A DNA stretch of 64,000 nucleotides from Candidatus Tayloriibacteriota bacterium. Its GTDB lineage: Bacteria > Patescibacteriota > Minisyncoccia > Phycocordibacterales > UBA6065. The notes under the pieces are model-generated. The model made no database searches. It worked only from the letters and a program-made list of their open reading frames with translations, and was not told the origin of the DNA. The position numbers and the translations under genes are program-made. Positions within the stretch are counted from its first letter, which is position 1. The number at the start of each line of letters is the position of its first letter. Positions 14,743 through 64,000 of this stretch are shown piece by piece. Location of the stretch: assembly GCA_016215405.1 (NCBI GenBank), contig JACRJQ010000008.1, positions 124,898-188,897 of the forward strand. The letters are read 5' to 3'.

Positions 14743-14880
14743 ATGGCAATCGTATACAAGACAAAGAATAGGAAACGAGCTCGCGCTCACGGCTTCCTCG
14801 CGAGGAAGGCCACAAAGAACGGCAGGAACGTCATGAAGCGCCGAAGGCAGAAGGGCCGAAAGCGCGTAGTGAAGGTATAA
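14743..14880 (+). CDS. rpmH: 50S ribosomal protein L34
   Basis: 45 aa: [45 protein letters not shown]. Missing from the ORF track because it is under 60 aa. Confidence 0.8.
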
Positions 14881-14891
14881 TCCCATACCCC

Positions 14892-15215: not shown

Positions 15216-15245
15216 GCTTTCTCACCCTCGCTTATACTTATCCCT

Positions 15246-17309: not shown

Positions 17310-17315
17310 ATAGGA

Positions 17316-19336: not shown

Positions 19337-19379
19337 GGATATATTGTATCACAAGGAAAAGCCGCGCAGGATGCGCGGC

Positions 19380-21185: not shown

Positions 21186-21189
21186 AGGT

Positions 21190-21825
21190 TTAATTTAGAG
21201 GGATAGGCTTCTCCGTGTCTCCGGGATTGAATATCTTGTAGAAGAGCTCGACGATCTCTTCGGTTCCGAGCTCGACCGACCTGATGCCGCAGCGGACGAG
21301 GCCTTGAGTGACCACCCCCACCCTCTGCTCGAGCTGGCTTCTGTGCTCTTCGAAGAGCTCGATCCTCTTTTCGGCAGATTGAGCGTCGGTCCTTTTCGAG
21401 AAGACGTCGGTCACGCTCGATTTGTTGAGGGTCGCGGGAGAGTAGGGCACGACCACGAAGAACGTCTTGGTCATGATGTTGGAGTTCTCCGTGAAATTCT
21501 TGATGAATCCGATGTACTCGCGGGTCTGGATCTTGAGGAGGTCGGAGACCTGCTCTTTGAGCCTGTTCTCGAGGAGGGCGATGTAGGGCCTGATGTCGAG
21601 CTTTCTAGACTGTATGAATATCTGGATCGAGAAGTCGAGAGAGTTCACGAAATTCTGGAACTGCATGAGGATCGACTGCTGTTCGTCGGCTGATTTGAGC
21701 GCGAAGTTGAGCGAGGACGCCATGATGACGGCGCGAAGCGATCCGTCTTTGAGGACGACGATGCCTTGGCGTATCTCCTTTATAGGGACGAACTCCTGCG
21801 TCGTCTTGGCGTTAACGGCTGGCAT
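21190..21825 (-). CDS. hypothetical protein (T4SS-like operon)
   Basis: 211 aa, tightly packed between virB4 and the VirB3-like gene. Confidence 0.45.
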   Translation of the reverse strand: MPAVNAKTTQEFVPIKEIRQGIVVLKDGSLRAVIMASSLNFALKSADEQQSILMQFQNFVNSLDFSIQIFIQSRKLDIRPYIALLENRLKEQVSDLLKIQTREYIGFIKNFTENSNIMTKTFFVVVPYSPATLNKSSVTDVFSKRTDAQSAEKRIELFEEHRSQLEQRVGVVTQGLVRCGIRSVELGTEEIVELFYKIFNPGDTEKPIPLN

Positions 21826-21842
21826 GGATGAAGTATATCAGA

Positions 21843-22298
21843 TTAGATATTCGACCTGCCCTTCTGGCTCTGGACGGGATTCTGCGCCTGCTTGATGTCG
21901 AGAGACCACGTGAGATCCTTGAGCTTGGAGTCCGAGAGCTTCGGGACGTAGAAATCGTTAGTCGTCGCCTCTGCGGCCTGTTTCGCGATCACCTGCTTGT
22001 CGACCTTCTTCCAGATGTAGAGCTTGTTACCTATGTAATATCCCCAGGCGGCCTCGACGACGTTTATGAACGGCTTGTTGTTTATCTTGTAGAACGCCAG
22101 AGCGAGGGTGAATCCTACGATAGGAAGGATGAGGATGGCGCTTAGGAAGAGGTTGCCCGCAAAGGAATACACGAGGAACGAGAGCCCGGCGCCGCCGAGG
22201 AGGTATATGAACTGCCTGAGGGTGAGGGGGCCGAATATCTTGTCTTCAACCTCTATGAACTGGGGCACCTGGAATCGCATAGCGATATTATAGCGCAA
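21843..22298 (-). CDS. VirB3/PrgI-like small membrane protein
   Basis: 151 aa with two adjacent TM helices (LGGAGLSFLVYSFAGNLFLSAILILPIVGFTLALAF), directly upstream of virB4 as in Gram-positive T4SS. Confidence 0.5.
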   Translation of the reverse strand: MRYNIAMRFQVPQFIEVEDKIFGPLTLRQFIYLLGGAGLSFLVYSFAGNLFLSAILILPIVGFTLALAFYKINNKPFINVVEAAWGYYIGNKLYIWKKVDKQVIAKQAAEATTNDFYVPKLSDSKLKDLTWSLDIKQAQNPVQSQKGRSNI

Positions 22299-22324
22299 AA
22301 AACATCGCCCTTGCGGGCGATGTT

Positions 22325-22954
22325 CTAGGCGATAGGCTCTCTGTAAGGGTCCGCGGAGTATTTTGGCTTTGGCGGTTCGGGGACTGGGTGCTGTAGCGTC
22401 GGTTCGGGCTTTATCTGGGCCCTTTGGGCCGGGAGATTGACCGTTTCCGTGAGTTTCCCTGCTATGAATTCGTTGGCCACCGTCTTTTTCGATTCCTCGA
22501 GGACCTCTTTTGGTACCGCCGGGCCTCCGGTATCGACGGTTATAGGAGGCGTGGAAGGAGTCGGATTCTCGATTTCGGCGAGGAGGCTCTCTCGTTCGAG
22601 GTTCTCGAGTTTTGATTCTTGTGGCGTAGCCGACGCTTCGACCGGAGTACCTGCAGCGATATTTCGGAAAGGGAGGAATACGCTCTGATTGAGCTCATTC
22701 ACCACTCCGTTGAGGTCTTTTACCGACCCTCCGAGAGCCTTGCCTAATTCCCGCGGGAAGTCTGAGGTGTTCAGGAGGCCCGTGAGAGCGAGAAAGACAA
22801 GATCACCCATCTTCCCTATCCCATCGAGGAGGAGGCCGTGCCGGGTTCCGATGTCACGGAGAGAGGATGTGAAATCCACAGACGCGAGGAACTCCTTTTC
22901 CCTTTCAGAGAGCCTTTTGTACGAATATATTTTTTGTTCGTTGGTGAAATCCAT
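22325..22954 (-). CDS. hypothetical protein (T4SS-like operon)
   Basis: 209 aa soluble protein with a Pro-rich C-terminus. Confidence 0.45.
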   Translation of the reverse strand: MDFTNEQKIYSYKRLSEREKEFLASVDFTSSLRDIGTRHGLLLDGIGKMGDLVFLALTGLLNTSDFPRELGKALGGSVKDLNGVVNELNQSVFLPFRNIAAGTPVEASATPQESKLENLERESLLAEIENPTPSTPPITVDTGGPAVPKEVLEESKKTVANEFIAGKLTETVNLPAQRAQIKPEPTLQHPVPEPPKPKYSADPYREPIA

Positions 22955-22956
22955 CT

Positions 22957-25392
22957 CTAGAATGTTTTACCTACGGGATTGTCGCGGAACCACTCGATGA
23001 CCTTATCGACATTCTCTCTTACGTCTGGAGGTAGGGTCGCGGGAGCGTTCTGGATTCTGGTCTTGATCTCAGTCCTTTCGGCAGAGCCGAGCTCGTCGAG
23101 CACTTTTCCGAGGGTCTTCGGAGTGAGGCGGTAGATGACCTCGGAGTGACTGAGCCTCTTATCTGGACCTCCTGGATCTCTCCAGCCGAGCTTTGCGATC
23201 TCGTTCTCCTCGAGCTCCTTGAGCTCGTCGCGAATCACAGCGACGTTTCCTAGAGATATCGCGTCATCGAGCTTCTTATAGCGGGCATCCTTCATCTTTT
23301 TCTTGGTCGTGCCGGTGAGCCTCGAGCTCTTCATGAGCTTGTCGAACTTGTCGTAATCCATGACATGAGGATTGACGAAGGATTCTTCGATGAGGGTGTC
23401 AGGAGTGAGATTCTCGAGCTCTTTGTCGGAGTGGCTCTTGATAGCCTTTTTGACCTCTTCTGCCGATGCTCTGTTCTTGACCGCGCCCGATACGTCAGCG
23501 AGCCGAGCGCCCCAGATCTTCGCTTTGTCCTCGTCGTTTTCCGCCTTATCGGCGAGATGCTCTGCCTGGCTCTGCGATATGACCTGGACGAATTGCTCGT
23601 TCTTCGTCGCTTTCTTGTCGAGCTTCTCGAGCTGCTTGTTGCCGAGCTTCTGCGCCTCTTCGGCGATCTTCGCTTTGGCATCTTTTACCGCATTGTTCGA
23701 GTTGTACCCTTGGAGCGCCGTCATGTATTGGGTCTGAGCGGTGCGGTATGCGGCCTCGCTCGCCGCTGTCGGATTCGCTTTCCATGCACTTTCCGCTTGA
23801 TCGAGGCCGACTTTAAGGGCCTTTGTGTTGTAGTGTCCAGGGCCTGCCATGACTTCGAGGACGCTTTCGATCTGTTTGAGTATCGCCTGATTCGCCTTTT
23901 CGATCTTGCGCTCCTCTGCCCACTCGGCGGTATCGGCCTTGATCGCTTTCGCGTCCTTGCCCTTGAGGTCGATTCCCTTGTCTCCGGTGGCGCCGCCTAC
24001 GATATTGGTCATCAGGTTGCCCACCTTGTTGTCCCCGATGCCGATGTTTCGTACGTCCCATGTCCCCGACTTCATCTTGTTCGTCGTCGCCTCCCCTGCA
24101 TCCTTGAGGGCCTTTCGAGGGTCTTTGACATACTTCATAACCTTAGGATCGGTCATCCATGGAGCGAGGTTCTCTTTTCCTGTCTTCTTGAAAGCGTCCC
24201 AACCCTGACCTTTTTCTGCGGTAAGGGCCGCGCCGAGGCCTCGGCCTCCGGCTCGCAAGCCCATCATAAGGCCGCCCGTCGCGTACGTTCCTACGGCTCC
24301 TACAGCGAGCTTGCCGAGAGAGGACGCGAGGCCACCAAGGGCCGTCCCCATCTCGCCCGAGTTCTTCTTTGCGATGTTAAGCGTCGCTTTGAGGAGAAAG
24401 ATGATGAGGAAGTACTGGAAGTACTGCGATACGCTGATGCCCATGCTGTCGATCGCCTTGTCCTGGAGCATCTCGAGGCTGAGGTCTTGCAGGCTATTTA
24501 TGAATTGGAGCGATATATAGAGCATGAGAAGGAACGCGACCGGGAATATTGCGGCGCTCGAGAGCTCCTTCCACCACTTTTTCGAGTACTCGCTTATCTG
24601 AGGCAAGACGCTGCCCATGAATCCTATAGGCGAGAAGACCATGAGGAAGAGTATCGTCACGCTTCGGGCGATGAAGAGCACGGCGCAGTACATGAATATG
24701 TATGTCGCGATGGAGACGACGGTGAGGCGCAGTATCCCGGCTATGAAGCCCTTGCTCGGATCGGTAAGGTCTGCGGGATTCTTTCCCACCCCGTTCGCGT
24801 TCTCTTTGGCGTTTCCGAGCCAGAACTGCATGACGCCGAGCCTCGTCGCGATGAGGCCCGAGAGGCTCGTCGGCTTGTTCTGATCCTGGCTATTGACGAC
24901 GAGGGTCTTCTGGATGCCTCCGTAGAGCCAGTTGCCGAAGACGTTCGAGACATCGACGAGGGTCTTGGTGAAGAAGAGGCTGAAGTTTATGAGAAGGGCG
25001 GCGATGACGACGTTCTTGAGCATGTTCATCGTGCCAAACCTCGTGCCGTTCACTATAGTGCCGAGGCTTATCCAGATGAGGATGAATATGAAGAATATGT
25101 TCGCGATGTCGCGGATGATGACCCAGCCGAGGTTTATCGCCGGAGAGAGGCTGAATATGTAAGCCGTGTGGAGACCGAACTGGATCGAGGTGTCCATGAT
25201 CATGCCTGCGAGGTACATGAAGAAGGACGAGAGCGGGAGTATGAGGATCTCGACCGGCCATATGAAGAATCGGCCTATCGCGCTCGTCGCGATATCTATG
25301 AACTGCGCATGCGCGATCTGCGGCACTACGAAGACCAGCCCTGCGAGGGCGATGAGAGGGAGCGCCGGTCTAAGGTTTATGGATCGCCGCAT
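22957..25392 (-). CDS. VirB6/TrbL-like polytopic membrane protein with a large hydrophilic C-terminal domain
   Basis: 811 aa; signal peptide, at least 6 TM helices in the N-terminal half, long charged coiled-coil-like tail. Confidence 0.6.
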   Translation of the reverse strand: MRRSINLRPALPLIALAGLVFVVPQIAHAQFIDIATSAIGRFFIWPVEILILPLSSFFMYLAGMIMDTSIQFGLHTAYIFSLSPAINLGWVIIRDIANIFFIFILIWISLGTIVNGTRFGTMNMLKNVVIAALLINFSLFFTKTLVDVSNVFGNWLYGGIQKTLVVNSQDQNKPTSLSGLIATRLGVMQFWLGNAKENANGVGKNPADLTDPSKGFIAGILRLTVVSIATYIFMYCAVLFIARSVTILFLMVFSPIGFMGSVLPQISEYSKKWWKELSSAAIFPVAFLLMLYISLQFINSLQDLSLEMLQDKAIDSMGISVSQYFQYFLIIFLLKATLNIAKKNSGEMGTALGGLASSLGKLAVGAVGTYATGGLMMGLRAGGRGLGAALTAEKGQGWDAFKKTGKENLAPWMTDPKVMKYVKDPRKALKDAGEATTNKMKSGTWDVRNIGIGDNKVGNLMTNIVGGATGDKGIDLKGKDAKAIKADTAEWAEERKIEKANQAILKQIESVLEVMAGPGHYNTKALKVGLDQAESAWKANPTAASEAAYRTAQTQYMTALQGYNSNNAVKDAKAKIAEEAQKLGNKQLEKLDKKATKNEQFVQVISQSQAEHLADKAENDEDKAKIWGARLADVSGAVKNRASAEEVKKAIKSHSDKELENLTPDTLIEESFVNPHVMDYDKFDKLMKSSRLTGTTKKKMKDARYKKLDDAISLGNVAVIRDELKELEENEIAKLGWRDPGGPDKRLSHSEVIYRLTPKTLGKVLDELGSAERTEIKTRIQNAPATLPPDVRENVDKVIEWFRDNPVGKTF

Positions 25393-25399
25393 TTAGTAT

Positions 25400-27799
25400 C
25401 TATTGTACTACGAAGTTGCCCGTCGCGGTCTTAAGGACGGTGCCGAACTTATCCTCAACCGTGGTTTCGATGGTATAGGTCCCAGCCGGAGCGCCGACCT
25501 TTATGCTCTGGGCCTTTTGCCTGAAGAGATAGTATTTGGCCGGATTGCTCTGGGTTACCCGCGAGAGCTCGAAGGAGCCCGAATCGTTCTCCGGCGATAT
25601 CGCGAATATCGAGATCTGCTCGCCTTCCCTACCGTACGCGAAGTCCATGGTCGAGAATACCGATAGGTACGATACCCTAGAGCCGTTTCGCTTGATGTTC
25701 GATTTTATGGTGAGCTCGTTACCAGAAGATATCGGCTTTTCTGCCGTAAGGCGGAGCTCGTAGCCCTGAGAAGAGCCGTTCGCTATCGAAGACGTCGGCG
25801 AGGAAGTAAGCCATGCGAGAGTGCTCGTCGCTGTTCGGCCATCGTCTTGTACGGTCGACGAGGATCCGGATGAAGACGACCCCGACCCGCCCGAGATAGG
25901 GGTAGTCGAGCCGACGGAGACGTTACCGATCACTTCGACCTCGATGAGCTCGAGAGGGTGATAGCAGCTCTCGTACTCTCGCTCGCCTCGGAATTCGAAG
26001 GTGACGCGGCATTGGTCGTCGAGCTGGCCCTGCTTCTCTATCCTCACATACCTCCTCGTCTGCCCGACCGGTACGATCGTCGGATTAGGGCTCGAATCTG
26101 CCGGCGAGAGCGAGTCGGATGCCCATGCGTTCTGAGAGGCTCCGTCGGACGCGACGACGCGGATAGATCCCAAGGTCTCTGAGGCGGGCTTGTTCGCGAC
26201 GCGCCAGATGCGCACTTCTTTTATGGCTTTGGCCGCGCCGAGGTCTACTTCCCACCATGGGTTCTCTTCCTCTGCGCTTATCGCCGGTTGATTATATTGG
26301 GTGACGTTACCGTCTTTGTTCCCGTTCACGGCGTTGTTCGCAGAACCGCCTCCGAAGCTCGATTGGGATGCGGGCTTGAGGAGAGCGTAATTCTGCTCGG
26401 TCGCCTCTTCTGATGAGAAATTATCGCTGATGAGCTCTTGCTGGGCCTGCTGCTGGGCGACCGCCTTGTTAGTCGCTATATCGGTCGCCTTATAGATGTC
26501 TTGGACCCCGGCGTCGTTCTGGACGAGGTCGGCGGCCGCATCGAAGTCTCGTACTTGGTAGTCTTCGGCCGGAGACGTCGCTCCGGTCGCTGTTGTCCCT
26601 CCGGCGCCGTAGTATTGGTTCTGGTATTTATTGTAATAGCTCTGGCTCGCCGAGCTCTTCTTGCTCATGCCGAGGAGGCCGTATGCGCCTTGAATCGCCT
26701 TTTGAGCGAGCTGGTTCATCGTCGCTGCGATGACGTCGTCGATCTCCTGCGCGACTGCGGCCTGGATGTCCCCTTGGGCCAAGGTGCTGTTGAGCTTCGA
26801 GGCGATGACGTATCCCGGAGTCTGGGTCACTTGCTTCTTGCAGATAGGCTTTTCGGAGGTCGAGAATATCGTCTGAGTCTTCGTGGCCGAGGTCGGCGCG
26901 GAGGTCTGTTTGCCGTCTAAGCTGTATGTCCCGAACGCGTCGGCGTTGAGGTTGGTCTTTTGGACCTGTACCCCTCCCTCCTTTCCGCCACTTTTCTTTA
27001 CAGCCTCCACTCTCGCTTTAGCTTCTGCTTCCGTCTCGAGGTCTTCCGCCGCGCACTTCCTCGGGATATCGAGGAAGCCTTGGCCCAAAGCGAGCTTGTT
27101 CTGCTTGATCCCCGCGGCGCGCGCAGCCCTCTCCGCAAGCTCGCCGTCGGCTATGACATAGGCGCCGTAGACGTTGTTCTGGGGCTCGGTCGTAAGGGAG
27201 AGCCAGTTGTCCCAGCCTTGTCCGCCGTTCGTCGCTATGTTGTTGCCGATCTGCGATGCCGTACATCGAGCTCTCTCTCGAAACGGCCTACTATATTTGA
27301 GGGCGAGGGCGATTCGGATCTGGAATCCGAAGTCGTTACAGAGGAATCCGAGCTCCGTGCCTTCGATGAAGGTGCCTACTGCCTGGTCGGCCGCGTCGAG
27401 GAGCGTTCCTTCGAAGTCGGTCACGAACGTAGGGCTGCCTTCGAAACCGGAATTCACCCAGTTGACTATGCTCGAGCCGATATTTCGGATGAGCGAAACG
27501 ATCATTATCTTTGCGAGAGGCTGGAGGATGCAGCTGTTGAAGGACGCCGAGTGGACGGCTGCGTTGGTCGACGTGTCCTGGAGCGTGTCGCCGCTGCCGT
27601 CAGAGACGCCGATGATCTCTTTCACCCATGCAGGCGTGCTCACTCCAATAGCGGTGAGGAGGCCGACGATACAGGCTCCGGCTTTGCCTTGACCTTGGGC
27701 ATATACAGGCTTAGGCGGCAGAGCGGCGAGGCTTGCGGGGATGACGAAAGAGAGAGCGAGTATCGATGCTGTTATCTTTGTGAGGACGCTCTTCTTCAT
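25400..27799 (-). CDS. large secreted protein with a discoidin (F5/8 type C)-like domain
   Basis: 799 aa; signal peptide. ...NAVNGNKDGNVTQYNQPAISAEEENPWWEVDLGAAKAIKEVRIWRV resembles a galactose-binding-like fold. C-terminal Ser/Gly-rich linker plus a beta domain. Confidence 0.55.
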   Translation of the reverse strand: MKKSVLTKITASILALSFVIPASLAALPPKPVYAQGQGKAGACIVGLLTAIGVSTPAWVKEIIGVSDGSGDTLQDTSTNAAVHSASFNSCILQPLAKIMIVSLIRNIGSSIVNWVNSGFEGSPTFVTDFEGTLLDAADQAVGTFIEGTELGFLCNDFGFQIRIALALKYSRPFRERARCTASQIGNNIATNGGQGWDNWLSLTTEPQNNVYGAYVIADGELAERAARAAGIKQNKLALGQGFLDIPRKCAAEDLETEAEAKARVEAVKKSGGKEGGVQVQKTNLNADAFGTYSLDGKQTSAPTSATKTQTIFSTSEKPICKKQVTQTPGYVIASKLNSTLAQGDIQAAVAQEIDDVIAATMNQLAQKAIQGAYGLLGMSKKSSASQSYYNKYQNQYYGAGGTTATGATSPAEDYQVRDFDAAADLVQNDAGVQDIYKATDIATNKAVAQQQAQQELISDNFSSEEATEQNYALLKPASQSSFGGGSANNAVNGNKDGNVTQYNQPAISAEEENPWWEVDLGAAKAIKEVRIWRVANKPASETLGSIRVVASDGASQNAWASDSLSPADSSPNPTIVPVGQTRRYVRIEKQGQLDDQCRVTFEFRGEREYESCYHPLELIEVEVIGNVSVGSTTPISGGSGSSSSGSSSTVQDDGRTATSTLAWLTSSPTSSIANGSSQGYELRLTAEKPISSGNELTIKSNIKRNGSRVSYLSVFSTMDFAYGREGEQISIFAISPENDSGSFELSRVTQSNPAKYYLFRQKAQSIKVGAPAGTYTIETTVEDKFGTVLKTATGNFVVQ

Positions 27800-55559: not shown

Positions 55560-58500
55560 ATGTCACATGTAGCACGCAGGTTCGGTATCGCGATGTTGTC
55601 GGTCATGACGCTCGTTCTGCCGATCGTCGCGTCTGCCCAGGCGTTCGAGCCGCAAAAGGCGGTCGTCCTAGCTCGGATAGCGGTCCTCGACGGCGTCATA
55701 CAGGGCCAGGAAGGGAACGCGCTCTCGCTCTCGTTCAGGCTCAAGAATGACGGCGAGCCGACCGCGGCCATACGCTATAGCGCGGTCCTCTACGACGAGT
55801 CGATGTCGGCCCAAGCCCATGAGTATGTCGCTCCCGAGGAATTGTCCCTCGGCGGCCGCGAAGTCCGCGAGATATCTTTCACGTATAAGGTTCCGGACGC
55901 CCTCTCGGGGACGTACAAGCTCGCTCTTCGCGCCCAGCTCTCGTCGGGCATGCCTCTTTCTCTTTTCGTCTTTCCGCAGACGGTGACCTTCGAATCGAAG
56001 GGCGGAGGGCTTGTCGTCGACCAAGGCTCGTGCCTCCTCCGGGTCGAGGGCGAGGACGAATCGAAATTCTATACGACGAGGCAGGGGGTCGATATCCTCC
56101 CCTCTGAGAGCCTTGTCGGCTCCTGCTTCGTGAGGAACACAGGGACGGAGGAGGTCTCCGCGAGGGCCGCGTTCGATACCTATCAACGATCGAGGAGCGG
56201 CCCGCGCGTAGGCGATCAGGCCCTCTCGTCGGAGCTTTACGCGTTCGCATCGGGCGAGGAGAAGAGGGTCGACTTAAGGATCCCCTCGCCGCAAGAGGCT
56301 CAGGCGTACGACGCGGTCGCTTACTTCGTCTCGGAAGGAAAGGCTGTCTCGAACGACGTAGACTTCCATTATGTCGTAAGGGGAGCGAGCGCTACTATCC
56401 AGACTTTCTCTCTCGATAAGGTCTCCTACGCGGTAGGGGAAGAGGCTCGCGCAAGGCTCGTCTGGTCCCGCTCGGCCGATTCTTTTCCGGATTCGAGGCT
56501 GGGATCGGGGTCGCCCCTCGCCTCGCCGATGGCTACTGTCTCCTTGTTTTCAGGCAAAGACAGATGCGCTTCGGACCAGACCGTGCCGCTCGATCGCGAC
56601 GGCGTCCCGACGGAATTCTCCATAGCGATCGAAGAAAAGTGCCCGGATGTCCGCGCCCTCGTGTCGATATCGGATGAAGGGAGGCCTCTCGCCTCTTTCG
56701 ACTACAAGGTCGAGCTTCCGCGCGCGGCTTTGCCTTGGAAGACCGTCGCTTATGGGGCGTTCGGAGCAGTTCTTTTGGCCGCGCTCGTCGCTTTCAAGCT
56801 TCGGTCTAAGGATAGGTCGGGCGCCATACCGCTCGCGATGCTCCTTCTCGCCGGCGCCTTACTCTCTCCTCAGCTCGCCCGCGCGGGCGCGCAGACCGTC
56901 ACATGGACGGACCGCGGCAATAACAATCTGAGCGGCACGATAACCGTCGCCGATAGCTTTAACGAAGGAAGCGACGTGACTTTCACGGCCGATTTCAGCA
57001 AGAGATATCAATGGTGCACGAACGGCGCCACGAGGGACCTTACTTTCGGCTATAAGATACTCAATAGCCAGGACGAGGTCGTCGCCCATAGAGGCGCGAT
57101 AAGGACAGAGGTCGTCTCCGAGAACGTGGGCCAGCTCGCCGTCGGATCATATCGTCTCATCGCTTCGTTCGGCGAAGGGAACGGCACCATCACAGGCTAT
57201 ACGGATTCGACGTGCACCACGTATGTCGACTACGACGGCGATGGCTATGACGACGACAGCTATGAAGTGCAGTGTCGGATACCTATATATGGAGACCTGG
57301 CGAACGCAGAGCTTCCGTTTACGGTGAATGCGGTCGCTAAATCTCCGGACGGCTGGGTGGATAGCGCGGATTGCAACGCTATCAACGGCTGGACGTTCGA
57401 CGCCGACTCGGAAGCGACCTCGATCCAAGTCCATTTCTATAACGGCCCTGCTGGATCGGGCCAGTGGATAGGCGCGATCACGGCCGATTCGGGCCGTCCC
57501 GACGTGAACCAGGCTTACGGCATCTCCGGTAATCATGGATTTAGCTTCACTCCGCCTGCGAGCCTAAAGACAGGAGCCGAGATAAACGTATACGCATACG
57601 GCATCGGAGTGAATTCCTCGGGAGGGAACGACGGCCTCAATAGCCAGCTCTCGGGAACTCCGAAGACGTTTAGGTGCGCCGTCCCTGACGTCTGCGCCAA
57701 TATCGCTGGCGATCAAGCGAGCGTGCCCGGCGACCGCGTCCAGAGCGGACCGAATTGCGTCTGCCCTGCGGATAAGGTCGAGAACGGCTCAGGGCAGTGC
57801 GTTGCTCCCGACCTCGGCACGCCGACCGTGAACGTGTCCGCGAGCCCTCGGTCGATCTCTCCCGGCGGATCCGTGACCGTCTCGTCGGTGGCGGAAGGTT
57901 CGGGTCTCACCCATCACGGCTTCGAGGAGAGGTATAACGGAGGCGCTTGGCAGAACATCGGAGGCTTCTCTCCGATAAGCGGGCAGGCGCGGTCGGTGTC
58001 GAGGAATCCGTCGTTCGAAGGCACGTATGAATATCGAGCATACGCGAGCAACACGAACGGAGCGTCGTATGTATATGCGTCCCCGGTATCCGTATCCGTC
58101 ACTTCCGCTCCTCAGCCTTCGCAATGCTCGAACGGGCTCGACGACGACAACGACGGTCTCATCGACTATCCGAGCGATCCGGGCTGTACGGGATCTTCGG
58201 ATAACGACGAGTACAACACGGTCGTCATAAATCCGATCAACGGCATCTCCTATATCTCGGTCCCTTCTCCCGTCGCCGCGGGCACCGATTTCTCCGTGCG
58301 AGCGAGGAATAGCGGGACAAAGCCTTGGGGAAGCTCTCACGACCTTCTTTTGGCCACGGCGGACCTGTCTTCGAACATAGCCCTCGCTGACCTCGATCCT
58401 ACGATATCCGGAGGCGACAAAGTCGTGACGTTCAGGGCGCCTTCCATTCCGGGGACCTATGCGCTCCGGGCGGTCGAGCAGAACGTCGAATATTTCGGGC

Positions 58501-59111
58501 AGAACCAGTCGTTTCAAGTGACCGCGAATTCTTGTGACGATTGCGGCACGACCGATGTCTGTCCGAATATCGCCGGCACCCAGTCGAGCGTTCCGAACGG
58601 AATGACGGTCGACGGGAGCGGCAACTGCGTGACGAGCGGCTCGGGCACGGGAGGCAACGGCACCAATCCTGGCGGCGGAACCAATAATCCGCCCGGGTCC
58701 GGATTCACGGTTTCCGGCACATCGATCGTTCCTATACAGTTCATCGCCGACCTGCCGGCAAAATCCCAGAACGCTTCGATCTCGATCAACCCGGTCTCGT
58801 TCAGCGCGCCAGTCGTGCTCTCCGTCCAATCGATAGCTTCGGCTCAAGGGGCGGCGCTTCCTCAGGGCGTCACACCTACGTATTATTTCGGCGACAGAGA
58901 GGTCTCGTCGATGCTCCTTACCTTCGATCCGAACATCGGCACCTATCGCGATTCGAACGGGGCGATAGGCACGACCTTCTCGGTCAAGCTCTCGAAGAAG
59001 GTCGCCGAAAGCTATTTCGTCACCCTTATCGGCTCCTCCGGGACGAGGCAGGCCACGATGAGGATAGAGGTCGATCCGAACAATCTTAATCCTGAGTTCA
59101 GAGAATTCTAG
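55560..59111 (+). CDS. very large cell-surface protein (1183 aa) with signal peptide, mid-protein TM segment, Cys-rich repeats and the conserved C-terminal ~130-aa module
   Basis: Signal MSHVARRFGIAMLSVMTLVLPIVASAQA; duplicated VC(A/P)NIAG(D/T)Q(A/S)SVP motif; C-terminus ...VKLSKKVAESYFVTLIGSSG...NNLNPEFREF. Confidence 0.7.
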   Translation: MSHVARRFGIAMLSVMTLVLPIVASAQAFEPQKAVVLARIAVLDGVIQGQEGNALSLSFRLKNDGEPTAAIRYSAVLYDESMSAQAHEYVAPEELSLGGREVREISFTYKVPDALSGTYKLALRAQLSSGMPLSLFVFPQTVTFESKGGGLVVDQGSCLLRVEGEDESKFYTTRQGVDILPSESLVGSCFVRNTGTEEVSARAAFDTYQRSRSGPRVGDQALSSELYAFASGEEKRVDLRIPSPQEAQAYDAVAYFVSEGKAVSNDVDFHYVVRGASATIQTFSLDKVSYAVGEEARARLVWSRSADSFPDSRLGSGSPLASPMATVSLFSGKDRCASDQTVPLDRDGVPTEFSIAIEEKCPDVRALVSISDEGRPLASFDYKVELPRAALPWKTVAYGAFGAVLLAALVAFKLRSKDRSGAIPLAMLLLAGALLSPQLARAGAQTVTWTDRGNNNLSGTITVADSFNEGSDVTFTADFSKRYQWCTNGATRDLTFGYKILNSQDEVVAHRGAIRTEVVSENVGQLAVGSYRLIASFGEGNGTITGYTDSTCTTYVDYDGDGYDDDSYEVQCRIPIYGDLANAELPFTVNAVAKSPDGWVDSADCNAINGWTFDADSEATSIQVHFYNGPAGSGQWIGAITADSGRPDVNQAYGISGNHGFSFTPPASLKTGAEINVYAYGIGVNSSGGNDGLNSQLSGTPKTFRCAVPDVCANIAGDQASVPGDRVQSGPNCVCPADKVENGSGQCVAPDLGTPTVNVSASPRSISPGGSVTVSSVAEGSGLTHHGFEERYNGGAWQNIGGFSPISGQARSVSRNPSFEGTYEYRAYASNTNGASYVYASPVSVSVTSAPQPSQCSNGLDDDNDGLIDYPSDPGCTGSSDNDEYNTVVINPINGISYISVPSPVAAGTDFSVRARNSGTKPWGSSHDLLLATADLSSNIALADLDPTISGGDKVVTFRAPSIPGTYALRAVEQNVEYFGQNQSFQVTANSCDDCGTTDVCPNIAGTQSSVPNGMTVDGSGNCVTSGSGTGGNGTNPGGGTNNPPGSGFTVSGTSIVPIQFIADLPAKSQNASISINPVSFSAPVVLSVQSIASAQGAALPQGVTPTYYFGDREVSSMLLTFDPNIGTYRDSNGAIGTTFSVKLSKKVAESYFVTLIGSSGTRQATMRIEVDPNNLNPEFREF

Positions 59112-59119
59112 AAGATACG

Positions 59120-59149
59120 AAAAACCCCGCTATTGGCGGGGTTTTTCGT
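59120..59149 (+). terminator. intrinsic terminator
   Basis: AAAAACCCCGC-TATTG-GCGGGGTTTTTCG. Confidence 0.6.
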
Positions 59150-59245
59150 ATATCTGCGGAGCCTTCGCGGAGATAGCTTTCGCACGCCGCGGGCGATGGG
59201 GAAAACGAGGGGCATCATCGAAGGGTTTTCTCTGGTATCATCTTC

Positions 59246-60538
59246 TTGATGCGAATAAAGCTAGGAAACGCCGTTTTCGATAGAAATCCTGCGGCTTTAG
59301 CTTTCTTTGTTTGGTTCACGCTCGCTTTCGTCCTCGTATTCGCTTTTGGCCATGCCGTGCATGCCCAAGGAGTGTGGACGCAGACGAGCGGTCCCACGAA
59401 TATCGCGGGCCCGACCGGTTGCCATTATGAAGAAGAGTGCACCGACCAATCTGGCTGGTCGAATGCTTTTAGGGCAGGACAGTCTTGCTCGAGCGTAGGA
59501 TCTTCTGTCACATGCTATTTTAACGACAGCGCTTCGGGTTGCGGTACGGATAAGGTGCAAGGTTTCTTTAGGACGAGGTATCAGTATTCCTGCCAGGCTA
59601 TCCAGTCTTGTCCCTCCCCGATCGATCTCTGCGGGTCGCCCTCAGGCGGACAGCCGTCCGTCCCTTCGAGCTTCAGTTCGGCGTGCTCAGCGAACGGCGG
59701 ATCGACGAGCGTCACGTTCGACGGGACGATCGGGTGCAATCCGTCTCAGTATCCGCCAGAAGGAGGCAGGGATTGGACCGCGACCTGCAGCGCGTGCGCG
59801 CCCGCCTATTCCCAAGGCTATTATTACGGGCAGGGATATTATGAAGGCTACTACTACGGCCAGGGATACTATTATTCCCAGGGATATTACCAAGGCTACT
59901 ACTACGGACAAGGCTACTATTACAGCCAAGGAACCTATCAGGGAGCTTATTATGCGCAGGGATATTACCAAGGCTACTACTACGGACAAGGCTACTATTA
60001 CAGCCAAGGGACGTATCAGGGATACTACTATACTCAGGGCTACTACTACGGCCAGGGATACTATTATTCTCAAGGATATTATCAGGGCTATTATTACGGG
60101 CAGGGGTATTACTACGGCCAGGGATACTATTATTCTCAATCTTCGTATCTTCCTCCTCCCGGCTTCACTCTCGGCGGGACAGAGGCTATAAAGATACGAT
60201 TCCTCGAGGCGGGCGCGTCAGATTCGGAGCCAAAGGCGATCCCGGTGAACGCGGTGAGCGGATTTACGGGCAACGTCTCGGTGTCGATAACATCGAGCCC
60301 GGCTTTGCCGAACGGCGCGGCTATCAGATACTCGTGGAACGGAGGCGAGTGGTCATCGAATCCGAGCCCGATACTCATACCTTACGAAGGGTCCGCCACG
60401 CTAAGAGTCCAGGTATCGAAGAAGGTCTCTGGCACCTATGTGATCACCCTTACGGGCACCTCTCCTGGATATTCGAGCGTGACCAAAGACCTCATACTCA
60501 CTCCGACGACGCTCACCCCCGTATTTCAGGAGACCTAA
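59246..60538 (+). CDS. secreted Cys-rich protein with long (Q/S)GYYYG Tyr-Gly-Gln-rich tandem repeats and the conserved C-terminal module
   Basis: Signal/TM ALAFFVWFTLAFVLVFAFGHAVHA; Cys-rich domain; ~110 aa of QGYYYGQGYYYSQGYY repeats; C-terminus ...VSKKVSGTYVITLTGTSPG...LTPVFQET. Confidence 0.7.
   Translation: MMRIKLGNAVFDRNPAALAFFVWFTLAFVLVFAFGHAVHAQGVWTQTSGPTNIAGPTGCHYEEECTDQSGWSNAFRAGQSCSSVGSSVTCYFNDSASGCGTDKVQGFFRTRYQYSCQAIQSCPSPIDLCGSPSGGQPSVPSSFSSACSANGGSTSVTFDGTIGCNPSQYPPEGGRDWTATCSACAPAYSQGYYYGQGYYEGYYYGQGYYYSQGYYQGYYYGQGYYYSQGTYQGAYYAQGYYQGYYYGQGYYYSQGTYQGYYYTQGYYYGQGYYYSQGYYQGYYYGQGYYYGQGYYYSQSSYLPPPGFTLGGTEAIKIRFLEAGASDSEPKAIPVNAVSGFTGNVSVSITSSPALPNGAAIRYSWNGGEWSSNPSPILIPYEGSATLRVQVSKKVSGTYVITLTGTSPGYSSVTKDLILTPTTLTPVFQET
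59806..60140 (+). repeat. in-frame tandem repeat (78-nt unit, 24-nt sub-period) encoding the YYYGQG-type low-complexity region
   Basis: A near-identical 54-nt block cagggatattaccaaggctactactacggacaaggctactattacagccaagg starts at 59879 and again at 59957. Confidence 0.7.
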
Positions 60539-60571
60539 GAGCCTCTCGCCTCTTTTATCCTTTGAGGCATC

Positions 60572-60611
60572 GCGCTTCGCCTGATATGATTATCAGGCGA
60601 AGCGTTTTTTG
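60572..60611 (+). terminator. intrinsic terminator
   Basis: GCGCTTCGCCTGATA-TGAT-TATCAGGCGAAGCGTTTTTTG. Confidence 0.6.
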
Positions 60612-60640
60612 CCGCGCCGCGGCTCCTAATAAAAATCGAT

Positions 60641-61816
60641 TTGATGAAAAAGAAAATCCTCTCGGGCATGATCGTTCTTGCAGCGGTCTTGCTTTCGCCG
60701 GCAGGGGTCGACGCCCAATGGTCTGCCCCTACGCAGGCGCCTCCGGGAGGGAACGTGTCCGCTCCGATCAATGTCGGGTCTACGGCCCAGGTAAAGAACG
60801 GAGGGCTCTCGGTAAACGCTTTTACCGCCTGGCTCGATTCATATTTCGCAGGCAATGTTGGGGTGGGGGTCCTAAGCCCGACTCAAAAGCTCGACGTCGC
60901 GGGAGGTTTTCGGGTGGGCAACGGCAATGTGATCCACAACGTCGCGCACGGCAACTATGGCGTGCAGATGCTCAGGGCTGCCGATAACGGGGGAGGGGCC
61001 GGAGATGCCGGCCTCTATTACTGGATAAGCGAGCCGAGCGCGACATGGACGGGGGCTGGGATCGCGAGGAATATGAGGAACAGCAGCGCCGCGTTTCCTC
61101 GCGTGAACGCTTCTCTTTCCGGTCAGATGATCAGGTTCGACGAGGGGACAGGGATAAATTTCACCGTGGAGACGTCGGGAGGATCGAGGACGACGCCTCT
61201 CTCGGTGAGCGCCGGACAGACGGCGATGACGGGCAATCTCTGCCTTAACGGCACCTGCTATAGCAGCTGGCAATCCGGACCTCAAGGCCCTCAGGGTCCC
61301 GCTGGAAGCACTGGCGCCACTGGACCTCAAGGCCCGCAAGGCCCCGCAGGAAATACCGGAGCTACCGGACCTCAAGGCCCGCAAGGCCCGACCGGTCTTA
61401 CGGGAGCAACGGGTCCGCAAGGCCCTTCTGGACCTCAGGGTCCTGCGGGTCCGACCGGTAACACGGGTGCTACGGGAGCTCAAGGCCCGCAAGGCCCCGC
61501 AGGAAATACCGGAGCTACCGGACCTCAAGGCCCGCAAGGTCCACAGGGCCCGCAAGGGCCGACCGGAAGCACCGGAGCTACCGGCCCTCAAGGCCCTCAG
61601 GGTCCTGCCGGACCAGGCACGACTAAATTTAACGTTTCTGTATGGAGCATCTCTGCGGCGAGCGGCTGCTATCCTCCGAACGGCTCCCCGTGCGGAAACT
61701 GGAATCTTACCGCTGGGCATCGATACTGCTACCCCATGGGCTATGCGACCGGTATGATCGTAGAACAGACGGGCAATAACTCATGGGACTCCGCCGAAGT
61801 CGCCTGCTGGTACTAA
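60641..61816 (+). CDS. secreted collagen-like triple-helix repeat protein with tail-fibre-like N-terminal domain
   Basis: Signal peptide ending ...[22 protein letters not shown]; [18 protein letters not shown] motif; ~39 G-X-Y triplets ([18 protein letters not shown]...); Cys-containing C-terminal globular domain. Confidence 0.75.
61264..61617 (+). repeat. collagen-like G-X-Y coding repeat (9-nt period; 45-153-nt higher-order units)
   Basis: An exact ~50-nt block caaggccccgcaggaaataccggagctaccggacctcaaggcccgcaagg is duplicated 153 nt apart. Confidence 0.7.
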
Positions 61817-61912
61817 ACAGCGAGGAAATCGTATCGCGTTCCCAGCTCTGTGCCTCCTTTGCACGTTTCTTGTCCTTTGAGCCTTGACCCCCTGCCTGAT
61901 ATGATAGTAGGG

Positions 61913-63124
61913 ATGAGATTCTCATTTTTTCTTAAGATAGCCTTTGCGATCGTCCTCCTTTCGTCTCCCCTTTTCTCGCATGCGGGGACCGAGCATAATA
62001 TGACCGGCTATGCGTGGTCCTCGAATATCGGCTGGATAAGCTTCAACTGCACGAACGAATCTACCTGCGGGACCGTGAACTACGGAGTGAACAAGGCTGC
62101 TGATGGGACGATGACGGGATATGCGTGGTCTTCGGCGATCGGGTGGATACAGTTCGGCGGTCTCTCGGGTTTCCCTTCGGGGTCCGGAACCACCGCGGTA
62201 AACGCACAGGTCGTAGGGTCGAACGTGCAAGGGTGGGCGCGAGCACTCTCATATAGCGGGACATGGGACGGCTGGATATCCCTCGCCGGCACGTCTCCAA
62301 GTTACGGAGTCACTCACTCCGGAGGGTCTTTTGCGGGCTACGCCTGGGGAGGCGAGGTCGTGGGCTGGGTCCTCTTTGACGTTCAGGGCGTCTATCCCGC
62401 GATCTGTAGCGACTGCGGCGTCACGATCGAAGGTGATGCGTCCCTCGACATAAAATCGGGAGGGGTCAGCATCGTGGGTAACGGAGCGGTCCCTTACGGC
62501 ACGATTCCCGTATTCGAATGGACTCTCGTCAACATGCCTGTCGGCACGACATGCAGTGTTTCCAAGACCTCGGCTGGCGGCACCTCTTTCACGACCATAA
62601 CAAACATCGGCGCGTCGGGGACCTATACCGGAAGCGCACTTACGAACACTTCCTATACCTATCAGATAAGCTGCACGAACGGAGTCCTCAAGACGGCGAG
62701 CTTCACGGTCGCGCCTCAGCCTCCGGGATTCTCGCTCGGCTCTAGCGAGACGGTCGCTATCCAATTCGTGTCTCCAGGGTCGGCGGTCTCTGAGGAGAAA
62801 TCTGTGTTCGTGAACGCTATCGGAGGATACTCTAATCCGGTGACGATCTCGATAACCGGCTTTCCGCCCGCGATCGCTTCGACGACGTTCTCATACTCGT
62901 TCAATGGAGGCTCATCCTATTCCTCCTCGCCGACAGCAAATATAACGAGCCCTTATTCTTCCGGCATCGGATTTAAGGTTCGAGTGACGAGGCTCTCCGG
63001 AGCGCCTGCGTTCACCGGACCTTACACCATAACTCTCACAGGCACCGGATCCGGCGCGCCGAACGCAACCAAGAGCATGATCATAAATCCGACTTCTTTC
63101 ATCCCGAAGTTCGAAGAGTTCTAA
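61913..63124 (+). CDS. secreted protein with Trp-rich GYAWSxxIGWIxF repeats and the conserved C-terminal module
   Basis: Start MRFSFFLKIAFAIVLLSSPLFSHAG; three copies of (M/A)TGYAW(S/G)..(I/V)GW(I/V).F; C-terminus ...ITLTGTGSGAPNATKSMIINPTSFIPKFEEF. Confidence 0.65.
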   Translation: MRFSFFLKIAFAIVLLSSPLFSHAGTEHNMTGYAWSSNIGWISFNCTNESTCGTVNYGVNKAADGTMTGYAWSSAIGWIQFGGLSGFPSGSGTTAVNAQVVGSNVQGWARALSYSGTWDGWISLAGTSPSYGVTHSGGSFAGYAWGGEVVGWVLFDVQGVYPAICSDCGVTIEGDASLDIKSGGVSIVGNGAVPYGTIPVFEWTLVNMPVGTTCSVSKTSAGGTSFTTITNIGASGTYTGSALTNTSYTYQISCTNGVLKTASFTVAPQPPGFSLGSSETVAIQFVSPGSAVSEEKSVFVNAIGGYSNPVTISITGFPPAIASTTFSYSFNGGSSYSSSPTANITSPYSSGIGFKVRVTRLSGAPAFTGPYTITLTGTGSGAPNATKSMIINPTSFIPKFEEF

Positions 63125-63134
63125 TCAATACATC

Positions 63135-63428
63135 ATGAAGAAAACAGCATATATAGCATTGGCGGCAGTATTGGCAGGAGGATTCGTGTGGTATCTCACG
63201 AACGGAGAGGTGGGAGTCCCTCAAGGCGGCGATGCGTCGGTGCCGCTTACTGAAGAGGAGAGGATAGCCGAGCTCGATAGGCTCTCCTCTTCGTCCGTGC
63301 CGGTCGAGGAAGAGGAAGAGGAGAGGGTAGAGGCTCTCGAAAAGCTCTCTGCCTCGAGTACCCCTGTCGACGCCTCTATCGAGGAGAGGTTAAGAGCTCT
63401 CGACGCCCTTGAGAGATCGAGCCGTTAA
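63135..63428 (+). CDS. small membrane-anchored acidic protein
   Basis: 97 aa; TM AYIALAAVLAGGFVWYL; Glu-rich repeats. Confidence 0.4.
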   Translation: MKKTAYIALAAVLAGGFVWYLTNGEVGVPQGGDASVPLTEEERIAELDRLSSSSVPVEEEEEERVEALEKLSASSTPVDASIEERLRALDALERSSR

Positions 63429-63464
63429 ACAATAGCCTTTTATTAAGAATCGCTTATCAAGCCT

Positions 63465-64000
63465 ATGAACTATCGAACCATCGCATCGGCCCTCGCCATC
63501 GCTTCGCTCGCCCTGCCGTTTTCGGCATCGGCGCAATGGTCTGCTCCGACCCAGTCGCCTCCGAACGGGAACGTATCGGCGCCGATAAACACCGGAACCG
63601 GCACCCAGGCTAAGAATGGCAACCTGTCGGTGAATGCCTTTAGCGCGGTCCTGAACTCCTATTTCTCTCAGAACCTCGGCGTCGGAAATTCGAACCCGAG
63701 CGAGAAGCTCGTCGTGGGAGACGATTTTGGCGTCCTTACAGGAGCGCCGTCAAAAGGCGTCGTGTTCGGAAACACGGGGGGAAGCTTCTATTTTTACACA
63801 GGCCAGAGCTCAACGAGGAACATCTCCTTCGCTTGGCTTTACAACGCTACCCCAGCGAGCGCTTACGGCCAAATACAGACGTTCAGCCGGTCGAACCCTC
63901 TCTACATAGACGGTTCCCAACTCTATCTCAACGCGCAGTCTGCTGCGGGAAATGTCGGCGTGGGAAATACGATCCCTGGATACAAGCTCGACGTCACCGG
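63465..64000 (+). CDS. paralog of the collagen-like/tail-fibre-like protein N-terminal domain (partial; runs off window end)
   Basis: [67 protein letters not shown]...NVGVGNTIPGYKLDVT, open to the last base. About 60% identical to the 60641 protein N-terminus. Confidence 0.65.
   Translation, partial: MNYRTIASALAIASLALPFSASAQWSAPTQSPPNGNVSAPINTGTGTQAKNGNLSVNAFSAVLNSYFSQNLGVGNSNPSEKLVVGDDFGVLTGAPSKGVVFGNTGGSFYFYTGQSSTRNISFAWLYNATPASAYGQIQTFSRSNPLYIDGSQLYLNAQSAAGNVGVGNTIPGYKLDVT

Follow-up and report, generated by a model that had tools for sequence, protein, structure and literature searches.

The closest described counterparts of the proteins considered here are adhesins that dock at the tips of type IV pili. 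[quoted passage not shown] MshQ is predicted to dock likewise, and the PilY1 plugs are reported to have little sequence conservation (PMC12918778; 10.64898/2026.09.18.752573). The PilC plug is disordered when modeled alone (10.64898/2026.09.18.752573). The pili of monoderms are said to be without PilC/PilY1 (PMC12918778; 10.64898/2026.09.18.752573), and the published scheme includes systems that have the strand in cis and do without a PilY1-type partner (PMC12918778).

The cluster described here lies at one end of the window—the whole 64,000-nucleotide stretch of DNA that was analysed—and might form the adhesin end of a locus for a type IV pilus (type IV filament) in a Parcubacteria genome. 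Its six plus-strand genes, with starts from 55560 to 63465, are present as the original prediction had it:

55560..59111, plus strand: secreted-protein gene, 1183 aa; product identical to MBI5134602.1 (hypothetical protein, Candidatus Taylorbacteria)
58683..59108, plus strand: C-terminal Ig-like module of the 1183-aa protein (aa 1042–1183; profile match 1042–1183; HMM 2e-54)
59073..59108, plus strand: 12-residue tail of the 1183-aa protein, DPNNLNPEFREF-COOH, the proposed docking tag
59125..59146, plus strand: hairpin resembling an intrinsic terminator, CCCCGC / GCGGGG then T5, 3' of the 55560 gene (read from the sequence)
59246..60538, plus strand: secreted-protein gene, 430 aa
60143..60535, plus strand: C-terminal Ig-like module of the 430-aa protein (HMM 1.7e-59)
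60500–60535, plus strand: tail of the 430-aa protein, TPTTLTPVFQET-COOH
60572..60605, plus strand: strong terminator-like hairpin, 15-bp stem then T6, between the 59246 gene and the collagen-like gene
60641..61816, plus strand: collagen-like secreted protein, 391 aa, with GXY repeats, untagged (Pfam Collagen, 1.1e-14)
61850..63124, plus strand: gene of the Trp-rich GWAWS protein, 424 aa from GTG or 403 aa from ATG at 61913
62702..63121, plus strand: C-terminal Ig-like module of the GWAWS protein (HMM)
63086–63121, plus strand: tail of the GWAWS protein, NPTSFIPKFEEF-COOH, modeled without secondary structure and at lower confidence
63135..63428, plus strand: 97-aa protein with an N-terminal transmembrane (TM) helix and three [ST]xEExxxxLxxLxA/S repeats, a candidate partner
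63465..64000, plus strand: 5' part of the gene of a 284-aa secreted tail-fiber-like protein with a C-terminal Peptidase_S74 intramolecular-chaperone domain

Signal peptides had been predicted throughout the cluster. Cleavable-looking ones can be read from the sequence in five of the six products, of the n-h-c type and with AxA-like cleavage sites, as expected for Sec (type I) export; the 97-aa protein has its N-terminal TM helix instead. The 1183-aa protein continues from its signal peptide into an N-terminal domain, an internal TM plus second signal-like segment (aa ~393–445), a Cys-rich/acidic double-disulfide repeat region, the Ig-like module and the tail. In the 430-aa protein, a Cys-rich head and some 20 YYYGQG-type Tyr/Gly repeats stand between the signal peptide and the module and tail; in the GWAWS protein, whose family is represented in 68 related loci, a β-rich GYAWS..IGWI.F head and an Ig-like domain do so. 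The collagen-like protein has homologs at the same position in related loci, and shares its N-terminus (20 protein letters) with the product of the 63465 gene, which is complete (284 aa) on an identical short contig, L081. In at least 23 related loci, the tagged GWAWS gene is followed within 30 bp by a gene for a TM protein of the 97-aa type (80–130 aa, with 2–3 ExxxxxLxxLxA repeats).

The C-terminal segments (~135 aa) of the 55560, 59246 and 61850/61913 proteins are collinear, as first noticed: pairwise identities are 29–40%, 23 columns are invariant, and a six-frame scan of the whole window with the module HMM matches these three only, at 1e-54 to 1e-59, the next match having E > 1. This three-way similarity is far beyond chance. 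When 1.84 billion cluster representatives were searched with the module profile at E ≤ 1e-3, 164 representatives matched, 57 of them at E ≤ 1e-10, and the module-bearing loci with assignable names all belong to Patescibacteria/Parcubacteria. Confinement to C-termini holds for the whole module—of 36 matches across related loci totaling 1.23 Mb, 35 have a stop codon no more than 3 aa past their end, and the other is interrupted by a contig end—but not for its core (profile positions ~42–113), which also matches internal tandem repeats in about a dozen giant proteins. The module is therefore probably a generic Ig-like repeat, modeled as a β-sandwich domain. Its description as something that matches no known tag stands insofar as Pfam-A, NCBIfam 20.0 and PDB sequences hold no match to it, the sub-threshold Pfam matches being K319L-like_PKD (E 0.048) and GldM_3rd (E 0.67); the modeled fold is an ordinary Ig-like sandwich.

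Most likely, the functional tag is not this module but the tail of 6–12 residues, which is also present on proteins that lack the module. The ending [FYWI]-x-[EN]-x-COOH is seen in 123 of the best 150 among the 164 profile matches, and 115 of these 123 have P at −6. The ending given earlier, P.F.E[FT], is seen in the window as ...EFREF, ...VFQET and ...KFEEF, but a more fitting form of the motif is [ND]-P-x-[FWY]-x-E-[IFL]-COOH. The proteins stop at these letters, and no TM helix follows, as the original prediction stated. In its longer form, [ND]-P-x-x-Φ-[ND]-P-x-[FWY]-x-E-[IFL]-COOH, the tail would be a short free end after the Ig-like stalk. The residue at its very end varies (I, F and L, but N, G, D, H, Q and R as well); the neighboring Glu is invariant. 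Sixty of the 68 GWAWS-family members end in Φ-x-E-x and only 24 have the module; tails such as KKIPGFIEN, LSPIFQEF and DFSFIEF come after Cys-rich, PKD-like or acidic-repeat domains. The extreme C-terminus is conserved, then, on otherwise unrelated proteins with signal peptides, much as had been supposed.

Across the related loci, 73 of 1383 genes end in P-x-Φ-x-E-x, against 1.4 expected. Codon usage within the tail is varied (GAA 39 and GAG 34, four Pro codons, and TTT, TTC, TAT and TAC), and selection therefore acts at the level of the protein. Within a locus, the tails of different proteins vary together, with 35 identities versus 21.2 ± 3.0 when permuted (p = 5e-5), which fits a shared, co-evolving receptor. 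Tagged genes also cluster: further ones make up 11 of 331 within 2.5 kb of the GWAWS gene versus 2 of ~490 beyond 5 kb. Domain independence, protein-level selection and within-genome co-variation are the behavior of a targeting or docking tag, much as proposed, but they belong to the tail and not to the ~130-aa module.

Type IV pilus genes adjoin the tagged genes in many relatives. PilB is present within 6 kb downstream in 21 of the 45 related loci that have at least 6 kb of downstream sequence, with a gap of less than 130 bp in 12; in about half of the loci with enough flank, there is no PilB within 6 kb. After PilB come PilC (T2SSF), a GspH-like prepilin (G|FTLLE), a further pair of prepilin-like genes and, lastly, a protein of 420–630 aa with a pilin-like N-terminal helix that lacks Glu5. 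This large protein, putatively a PilK-like minor pilin, matches PilX_N weakly, in 2 of 15 members and at E 0.0055 at best; it has no relative in the PDB. In all 16 such proteins, a Gly/Ser/Pro linker leads to a C-terminal [IV]-x-[ST]-W-x-E-Φ(-x). The same aromatic-x-E-Φ terminus is seen in the tag.

A different query, the non-GWAWS subfamily of the module, retrieved three loci, and all three repeat the order of the window: the minus strand has ClpP, trigger factor, PPase and NusA, and there follow a large tagged protein, a tagged GWAWS protein, a ~95-aa TM protein and fiber proteins. Two of the three extend far enough, and both continue into PilB, PilC and pilins. The window stops 0.9 kb past its last tagged gene, ahead of the expected pil operon; minor pilins and the prepilin motif G|F[TS]L.E are absent from it, and its only PilB (2479–4161) is an orphan 51 kb away from the cluster. 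From this synteny, we infer that a pil operon lies just beyond position 64000.

We propose, tentatively and with somewhat less than even confidence, that the tail is a β-strand plug that docks interchangeable adhesins onto the minor-pilin tip of a type IV pilus. The three tagged proteins would be exported by Sec, each with a variable head—the Cys-rich domain, the Tyr/Gly repeats or the Trp-rich GWAWS domain—followed by Ig-like stalk domains. [quoted passage not shown] By analogy with the described plugs, the large PilK/PilX-like minor pilin is the presumptive binding partner. This protein has a plug-like cis strand of its own, and published systems of that kind are without a PilY1-type partner; the slot at the tip may, therefore, already be filled.

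Co-variation and the tight clustering of tagged genes require only some shared partner, and the tail might instead be a docking or sorting signal for another component of the envelope, with the pilus operon merely its neighbor. We consider this rather unlikely. The partner could be the small TM repeat protein just downstream, an S-layer or wall component, or a peptidase or transpeptidase that recognizes the free x-E-x-COOH; a variable last residue beside an invariant Glu would suit a leaving group in cleavage or transpeptidation. PilB is absent nearby in half of the loci, and the small TM protein near the GWAWS gene (at least 23 loci, and the window) is about as frequent as the PilB link. The small TM protein has no recognizable peptide-binding domain, however, and a partner of this sort does not account for the presence of the motif at the end of the PilK/PilX-like minor pilin, too. 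Neither the window nor the annotated recurrent neighbor families of the related loci include a sortase, rhombosortase-like enzyme, exosortase or S41/PDZ protease; the sortase- or rhombosortase-like processing enzyme that had been expected alongside the tag did not turn up there. The conserved neighbor is the type IV pilus operon, instead, and docking at the pilus tip is therefore favored over sorting of the cell-wall type.

Less probable still is that the tail has no partner at all: it would cap the final Ig-like or PKD-like domain structurally, helping it to fold or to resist proteases, and the proteins would be ordinary Ig-stalked adhesins. The module is a generic Ig-like fold, the tail usually comes directly after the last β-strand, and conserved termini are common in Ig-like adhesin domains. 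Against this, the same tail follows structurally unrelated domains (Cys-rich knots, acidic repeats) and co-varies between non-homologous proteins of one genome, and a tail-like ending occurs also on the PilK/PilX-like pilin, past a flexible Gly/Ser linker. The models leave the tail outside the fold: the last 9 residues have no DSSP element, and the pLDDT of the last block is 78 in one model and 76 and 62 in others, compared with > 90 for the preceding domain.

It is very improbable that the tail is a donor strand for self-assembly, accepted by an incomplete, chaperone-usher-pilin-like module of another tagged protein to form a fiber or sheath. The module does bear some likeness in fold to self-complemented CsuA/B and FimA (TM 0.45–0.54), but it is modeled as a complete β-sandwich, with no added strand, at very high confidence (pLDDT 94.7). 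Outside this clade, the module is missing from most tagged proteins and therefore cannot be a general acceptor, and neither the window nor the related loci showed any usher or chaperone genes. That the module is a T9SS-like export domain, or another known sorting domain (LPXTG, PEP-CTERM, WxL), is next to impossible: an Ig-like sandwich at the extreme C-terminus of diverse secreted proteins, with the N-terminal domain of PorA as top Foldseek match, recalls T9SS, but the reading is effectively refuted by the absence of any Pfam or NCBIfam sorting-domain match at E ≤ 1 (TIGR04183 and the Pfam T9SS CTD families included), the motif is followed by neither the TM segment nor the basic tail of LPXTG and PEP-CTERM signals, WxL has no Pfam match to the module, and the host lineage, the Patescibacteria, is not known to have an outer membrane or T9SS.

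If the tail is indeed a pilus-tip plug, a broader role can be imagined, though we find it doubtful: Parcubacteria might use a lineage-wide tag of 6–12 residues, P-x-aromatic-x-E-Φ-COOH, as a universal plug-and-display adaptor, by which any Sec-exported head could be mounted at the tip of the type IV pilus; the tag might do so by pushing aside the similar strand that the PilK/PilX-like minor pilin has in cis. Monoderm-type bacteria would then have their first example of a plug that acts in trans at the pilus tip, and one that operates without a PilY1 propeller and with several interchangeable cargo adhesins per locus. The tag system could then be a host-recognition toolkit of these episymbionts.

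Comparison with known systems brings out both likenesses and differences. In T9SS CTDs, too, an Ig-like β-sandwich ends many unrelated secreted proteins; there is no sequence match, however, and the conserved part here is the tail past the sandwich, found also without it. LPXTG, PEP-CTERM, PGF-CTERM, MYXO-CTERM and GlyGly-CTERM signals are likewise short signature motifs common to many surface proteins of a lineage. In those signals, the motif precedes a TM helix and a basic tail, and a dedicated enzyme does the cutting, whereas the motif here is the free C-terminus, and the search for an enzyme in the window and neighbor families was negative. TcpF and CofJ of T4bP are non-pilin cargo that uses a short terminal peptide to dock on a minor-pilin tip and is exported as the pilus extends, but the signal is at the N-terminus, a homotrimeric minor pilin serves as the receptor, and such systems occur in diderms only (10.64898/2026.09.18.752573). 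GspK, the PilK-like pilins of ComG, and Tad CpaL (TadG) resemble the large minor pilin of Parcubacteria, which is without Glu5 and has a pilin-like N-terminus, a big middle domain, and a flexible linker with a conserved terminal strand, W-x-E-Φ, much like a cis plug strand (PMC12918778). This likeness concerns the neighboring pilin of related loci, not the proteins of the window; these have cleavable Sec signals and no pilin domain, and their strand would therefore act in trans.

PilC/PilY1 come closest. They differ in that the tagged proteins lack the β-propeller (IPR008707) and have an Ig-like stalk ahead of the tail, in that the host, a Patescibacterium of the monoderm type, has no secretin, in that the tail motif of the tagged proteins is conserved across many genera, and in that the candidate PilK/PilX-like partner already has a similar strand in cis. 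In common, both are large, Sec-exported non-pilin proteins with signal peptides and variable, adhesin-like N-terminal heads. In both, several paralogs with different heads and similar tails occur in one genome. The PilC/PilY1 genes adjoin those of minor pilins; tagged genes do so in 21 of 45 related loci and in 2 of 3 from the different query, the window itself having no pilins. And in both, the key element, putatively so in the tagged proteins, is a short C-terminal tail of ~6–12 residues, unstructured in the monomer model.

All six plus-strand genes that the original prediction described between 55560 and 64000 are present, and the last ~135 residues of three of their proteins align collinearly, as it claimed.

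Genes and terminator-like hairpins of the cluster (window positions)
55560–59111, plus strand: 1183-aa protein, tagged (ending in the short tail P-x-aromatic-x-E-Phi-COOH, Phi being hydrophobic); identical to MBI5134602.1, 'hypothetical protein', from a Candidatus Taylorbacteria MAG
59125–59146: hairpin 3′ of the first gene
59246–60538, plus strand: 430-aa protein, tagged, with a Cys-rich head and ~20 YYYGQG-type repeats
60572–60605: hairpin 3′ of the second gene
60641–61816, plus strand: 391-aa collagen-like protein (Pfam Collagen, 1.1e-14)
61850/61913–63124, plus strand: 424/403-aa GWAWS protein, tagged, with Trp-rich GYAWS..IGWI.F repeats
63135–63428, plus strand: 97-aa protein with an N-terminal TM helix
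63465 onwards, plus strand: partial gene; the full version (284 aa) has a C-terminal Peptidase_S74 intramolecular-chaperone domain

The full version of the last gene was read from an identical short contig (L081 1956–2810; Logan contigs of 2.9 and 5.4 kb). Its product and that of 60641–61816, the one carrying Peptidase_S74 (63465–64000 in the window) and the other collagen-like, are secreted, untagged, tail-fibre-like proteins that share the same 20-residue N-terminus and are constant members of the cluster. Relatives lie in related loci recovered by our searches (L085 12000–13699 and L007 11524–12114), and the one in L085 has a further match, to the constant region of PilV (Shufflon_N, 8.5e-10). 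The interior of the 1183-aa ORF (aa ~393–445, nt ~56740–56895) has a TM helix, the short basic loop KLRSKDRSG and another stretch that resembles a signal peptide, its end reading ARA↓GAQ. This suggests either that two genes have fused or that the region is a two-TM hairpin; the architecture may be real, since a 974-aa protein from the representative search, P0021, has the same N-terminal domain.

By its fold, the C-terminal module common to the three proteins looks like an ordinary Ig-like domain. Its HMM, in a six-frame scan of the window, matches the same three proteins alone (E 1e-54 to 1e-59), and searches of Pfam-A, NCBIfam 20.0 and PDB sequences with the module and the whole proteins found no significant family for it. 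A word-indexed protein database returned one or two partial proteins even with a 55-sequence profile, and evidently lacks the family; 1.84 billion cluster representatives, searched with a profile, yielded 164 module proteins at E ≤ 1e-3. Among the best 150 of these, 92 of the 108 Met-starting proteins have a hydrophobic N-terminus, about 12 giant proteins match the module core alone, as internal repeats, and 123 end in [FYWI]-x-[EN]-x-COOH. The terminus logo of those 123 reads [ND]-P-x-[FWY]-x-E-[IFL], with proline at −6 in 115. Of the 36 module matches in 1.23 Mb of sequence from 80 Patescibacteria/Parcubacteria loci, 35 stop no more than 3 aa from the stop codon; the loci were gathered with full-length GWAWS proteins as the query, so this sample leans toward that family. 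Three proteins from the representative search (P0059, P0077 and P0103) run on from P-x-F-x-E-V, with no stop, through 14–25 further aromatic or hydrophobic residues, and could be anchored variants, products of read-through or errors of gene calling. The GF[TS]L at the N-terminus of the module, read as a prepilin-peptidase site, has no hydrophobic helix after it, and we treat it as coincidence.

The original prediction read the whole module as a possible C-terminal sorting or anchoring tag. A tag does exist, but it is the final 6–12 residues rather than the module. The deciding observation is that proteins without the module can still have the tail: 60 of 68 members of the GWAWS family end in Phi-x-E-x, and only 24 carry the module. 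In the members that lack it, Cys-rich, PKD-like or acidic-repeat domains immediately precede tails such as KKIPGFIEN, LSPIFQEF and DFSFIEF. Across the loci, 73 of 1383 genes end in P-x-Phi-x-E-x, against 1.4 expected from its internal frequency, and 13 of them code for other signal-peptide proteins, with no relation to either the GWAWS or the module family. The conserved tail positions show a mixture of synonymous codons, and selection therefore acts on the protein, not on an overlapping DNA signal; a ribosome-binding site or terminator overlapping the tail Glu codons is ruled out by this mixture and by variable gene spacing. Tails of different proteins within a locus resemble one another more than tails from different loci do (35 identities versus 21.2 ± 3.0, p = 5e-5), and further tagged genes occur almost solely within 2.5 kb of a tagged GWAWS gene. 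Taken together, tail frequency, codon mixture, within-locus likeness and tight clustering amount to a linear motif at the C-terminus, co-evolving with a common partner encoded in a compact locus.

The surroundings of the tagged genes point to a type IV pilus locus. Related genomes repeat the gene order of the window, in which the plus-strand tagged genes come after a minus-strand run of RNase Y, ClpP, trigger factor, PPase and NusA. Where enough downstream sequence is available, 21 of 45 loci have PilB no more than 6 kb further on, with a gap below 130 bp in 12 of the 21; about half of the related loci have no PilB nearby. After PilB come PilC (T2SSF), a GspH-like prepilin (G↓FTLLE), two more prepilin-like proteins and a large protein of 420–630 aa, which has an N-terminal helix resembling that of a pilin, without Glu5, and gives a weak PilX_N signal; TIM and PGK come after this pilin gene set. 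To offset the bias toward GWAWS proteins, metagenomes were scanned with a non-GWAWS module subfamily that includes the window's first gene. All three loci found have the gene order of the window, and the two that reach far enough continue into PilB, PilC and pilins ~2.3–3 kb past the GWAWS gene. There are no pilins within the window itself which, judging from these related loci, most likely ends just short of a pil operon. One related locus, L015 (JAUXUT010000149.1), has two tagged genes at 8624–10420 and 10501–11733 and its four minor-pilin genes at 17056–20302. Between its PilB and PilC, at 14884–15720, a 278-aa protein is encoded that carries a Laminin_G_3 domain; its C-terminus is PEP-CTERM-like below the threshold (Pfam 19.9 bits; cut-off 20.7), which would be unexpected for a Patescibacterium.

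The large protein, PilK/PilX-like, is encoded after the third prepilin-like gene in L006, L012, L013, L015, L018, L020, L022, L025–L029, L040, L041, L049 and L067. All 16 of these proteins (420–750 aa) finish with a Gly/Ser/Pro linker and then [IV]-x-[ST]-W-x-E-Phi(-x), which has the aromatic-x-E-Phi pattern of the tag. Its identification as PilK is based mostly on gene order: Pfam PilX_N matches 2 of 15 members, both below threshold, and a PDB profile search with the family gave no match. In some members the middle domain is of the choice-of-anchor R or DUF5649 type.

We suggest, tentatively, that the tail is a docking element for the minor-pilin tip complex, on which it would hold the tagged proteins for display or release. 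As the PilK/PilX-like protein already has a strand of its own in cis, a plug acting in trans would have to displace that strand or take another site. The prediction's reading of a sorting or anchoring tag at the C-terminus survives in part: docking at the pilus tip is favoured over sortase-type anchoring. Less probable, though not remote, is a different recipient, with the tail serving another envelope receptor or some processing enzyme. A candidate is a small TM protein of 80–130 aa—an N-terminal TM helix and two or three repeats of [ST]xEExxxxLxxLxA/S—encoded no more than 30 bp downstream of the tagged GWAWS gene in at least 23 loci; it directly follows the GWAWS gene in the window (63135–63428) and in L002, L005, L007–L009, L011–L016 and L083–L086. 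Proteins of the 63135–63428 type match no known family; they may act as chaperones of the tagged proteins or as their partners in the membrane. That the tail is a purely structural end-cap is improbable, given that it is independent of the preceding domain and that tails co-vary. Donor-strand self-assembly is more doubtful still: the fold does match self-complemented pilins, but the module is modelled as a complete fold and most tagged proteins do not have one. An already described sorting domain, for example a T9SS CTD or LPXTG, is hardly credible after the Pfam-A and NCBIfam searches of the module and whole proteins, which exclude it.

The remainder of the window is typical Parcubacteria chromosome, with DnaA, DnaN, YidC, PBP1, PNPase, RNase Y, ClpP, trigger factor, PPase and NusA. 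It also holds a T4SS-like gene set (16077–27799, minus strand) and a PilB gene.

Other features of the window
2479–4161: PilB-type (T2SSE) ATPase, orphan, with no PilC or pilins beside it
11899–12999, minus strand: DnaN
13244–14587, minus strand: DnaA
15246–16007, plus strand: YidC
17316–18332, minus strand: T4SS_pilin, weak match
19380–21185, minus strand: VirB4/TraG P-loop ATPase
21843–22298, minus strand: PrgI-family protein
22957–25392, minus strand: 811-aa TrbL/VirB6-like protein, weak match
25400–27799, minus strand: 799-aa protein with an F5/8 type C (discoidin) domain

This orphan and the PilB expected downstream of the cluster are probably two different paralogues; after the orphan come a coiled-coil protein and ORFs that are RuvB-, YebC- and RuvC-like by sequence. 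DnaN, DnaA and YidC sit together at 11899–16007, which suggests that the chromosomal replication origin is within the window. Four tRNA genes at 44–48 kb occupy a dip in GC to 0.46–0.49.

Patescibacteria (CPR) account for a large share of bacterial diversity; those in cultivation live attached to host cells, and the few surface machines conserved among them include type IV pili. Neither Pfam-A nor NCBIfam contains the family or its tail, named members are all 'hypothetical protein', and literature searches for a C-terminal sorting tag in Patescibacteria found no description of one. If the tail is a pilus-tip plug, a simple sequence rule would list candidate host-binding adhesins in thousands of uncultured genomes, and reveal a natural, modular way to fix any tagged cargo to the pilus tip, such as has been proposed for bioengineering. 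Even with some other partner, it is an uncatalogued, lineage-wide C-terminal signal, with at least 164 module cluster representatives and module-less members besides.

The closest parallel is with the PilC/PilY1 adhesins, whose last 10–12 residues hold them on the pilus tip; disordered alone, these residues add as a β-strand to a sheet of the minor pilin PilK (PMC12918778; 10.64898/2026.09.18.752573, both 2026). The same strand is present in cis on GspK, ComG-type PilK homologues and Tad CpaL, and MshQ is predicted to supply it in trans (same sources). PilC/PilY1 is absent from monoderm T4aP, according to Denic et al. (10.64898/2026.09.18.752573), and a study of the TM7x pilus described only large minor pilins; our proposal, if true, would carry the 2026 plug mechanism over to bacteria of monoderm type and to proteins without a propeller, the GWAWS head having no recognisable PilY1-like propeller. 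We propose docking at the pilus tip because the Parcubacteria proteins fit the trans pattern of PilC/PilY1: they too are Sec-exported non-pilins with variable heads and a short free tail, and they have Ig stalks, several paralogues per genome, genes adjoining those of minor pilins, and tails that co-vary.
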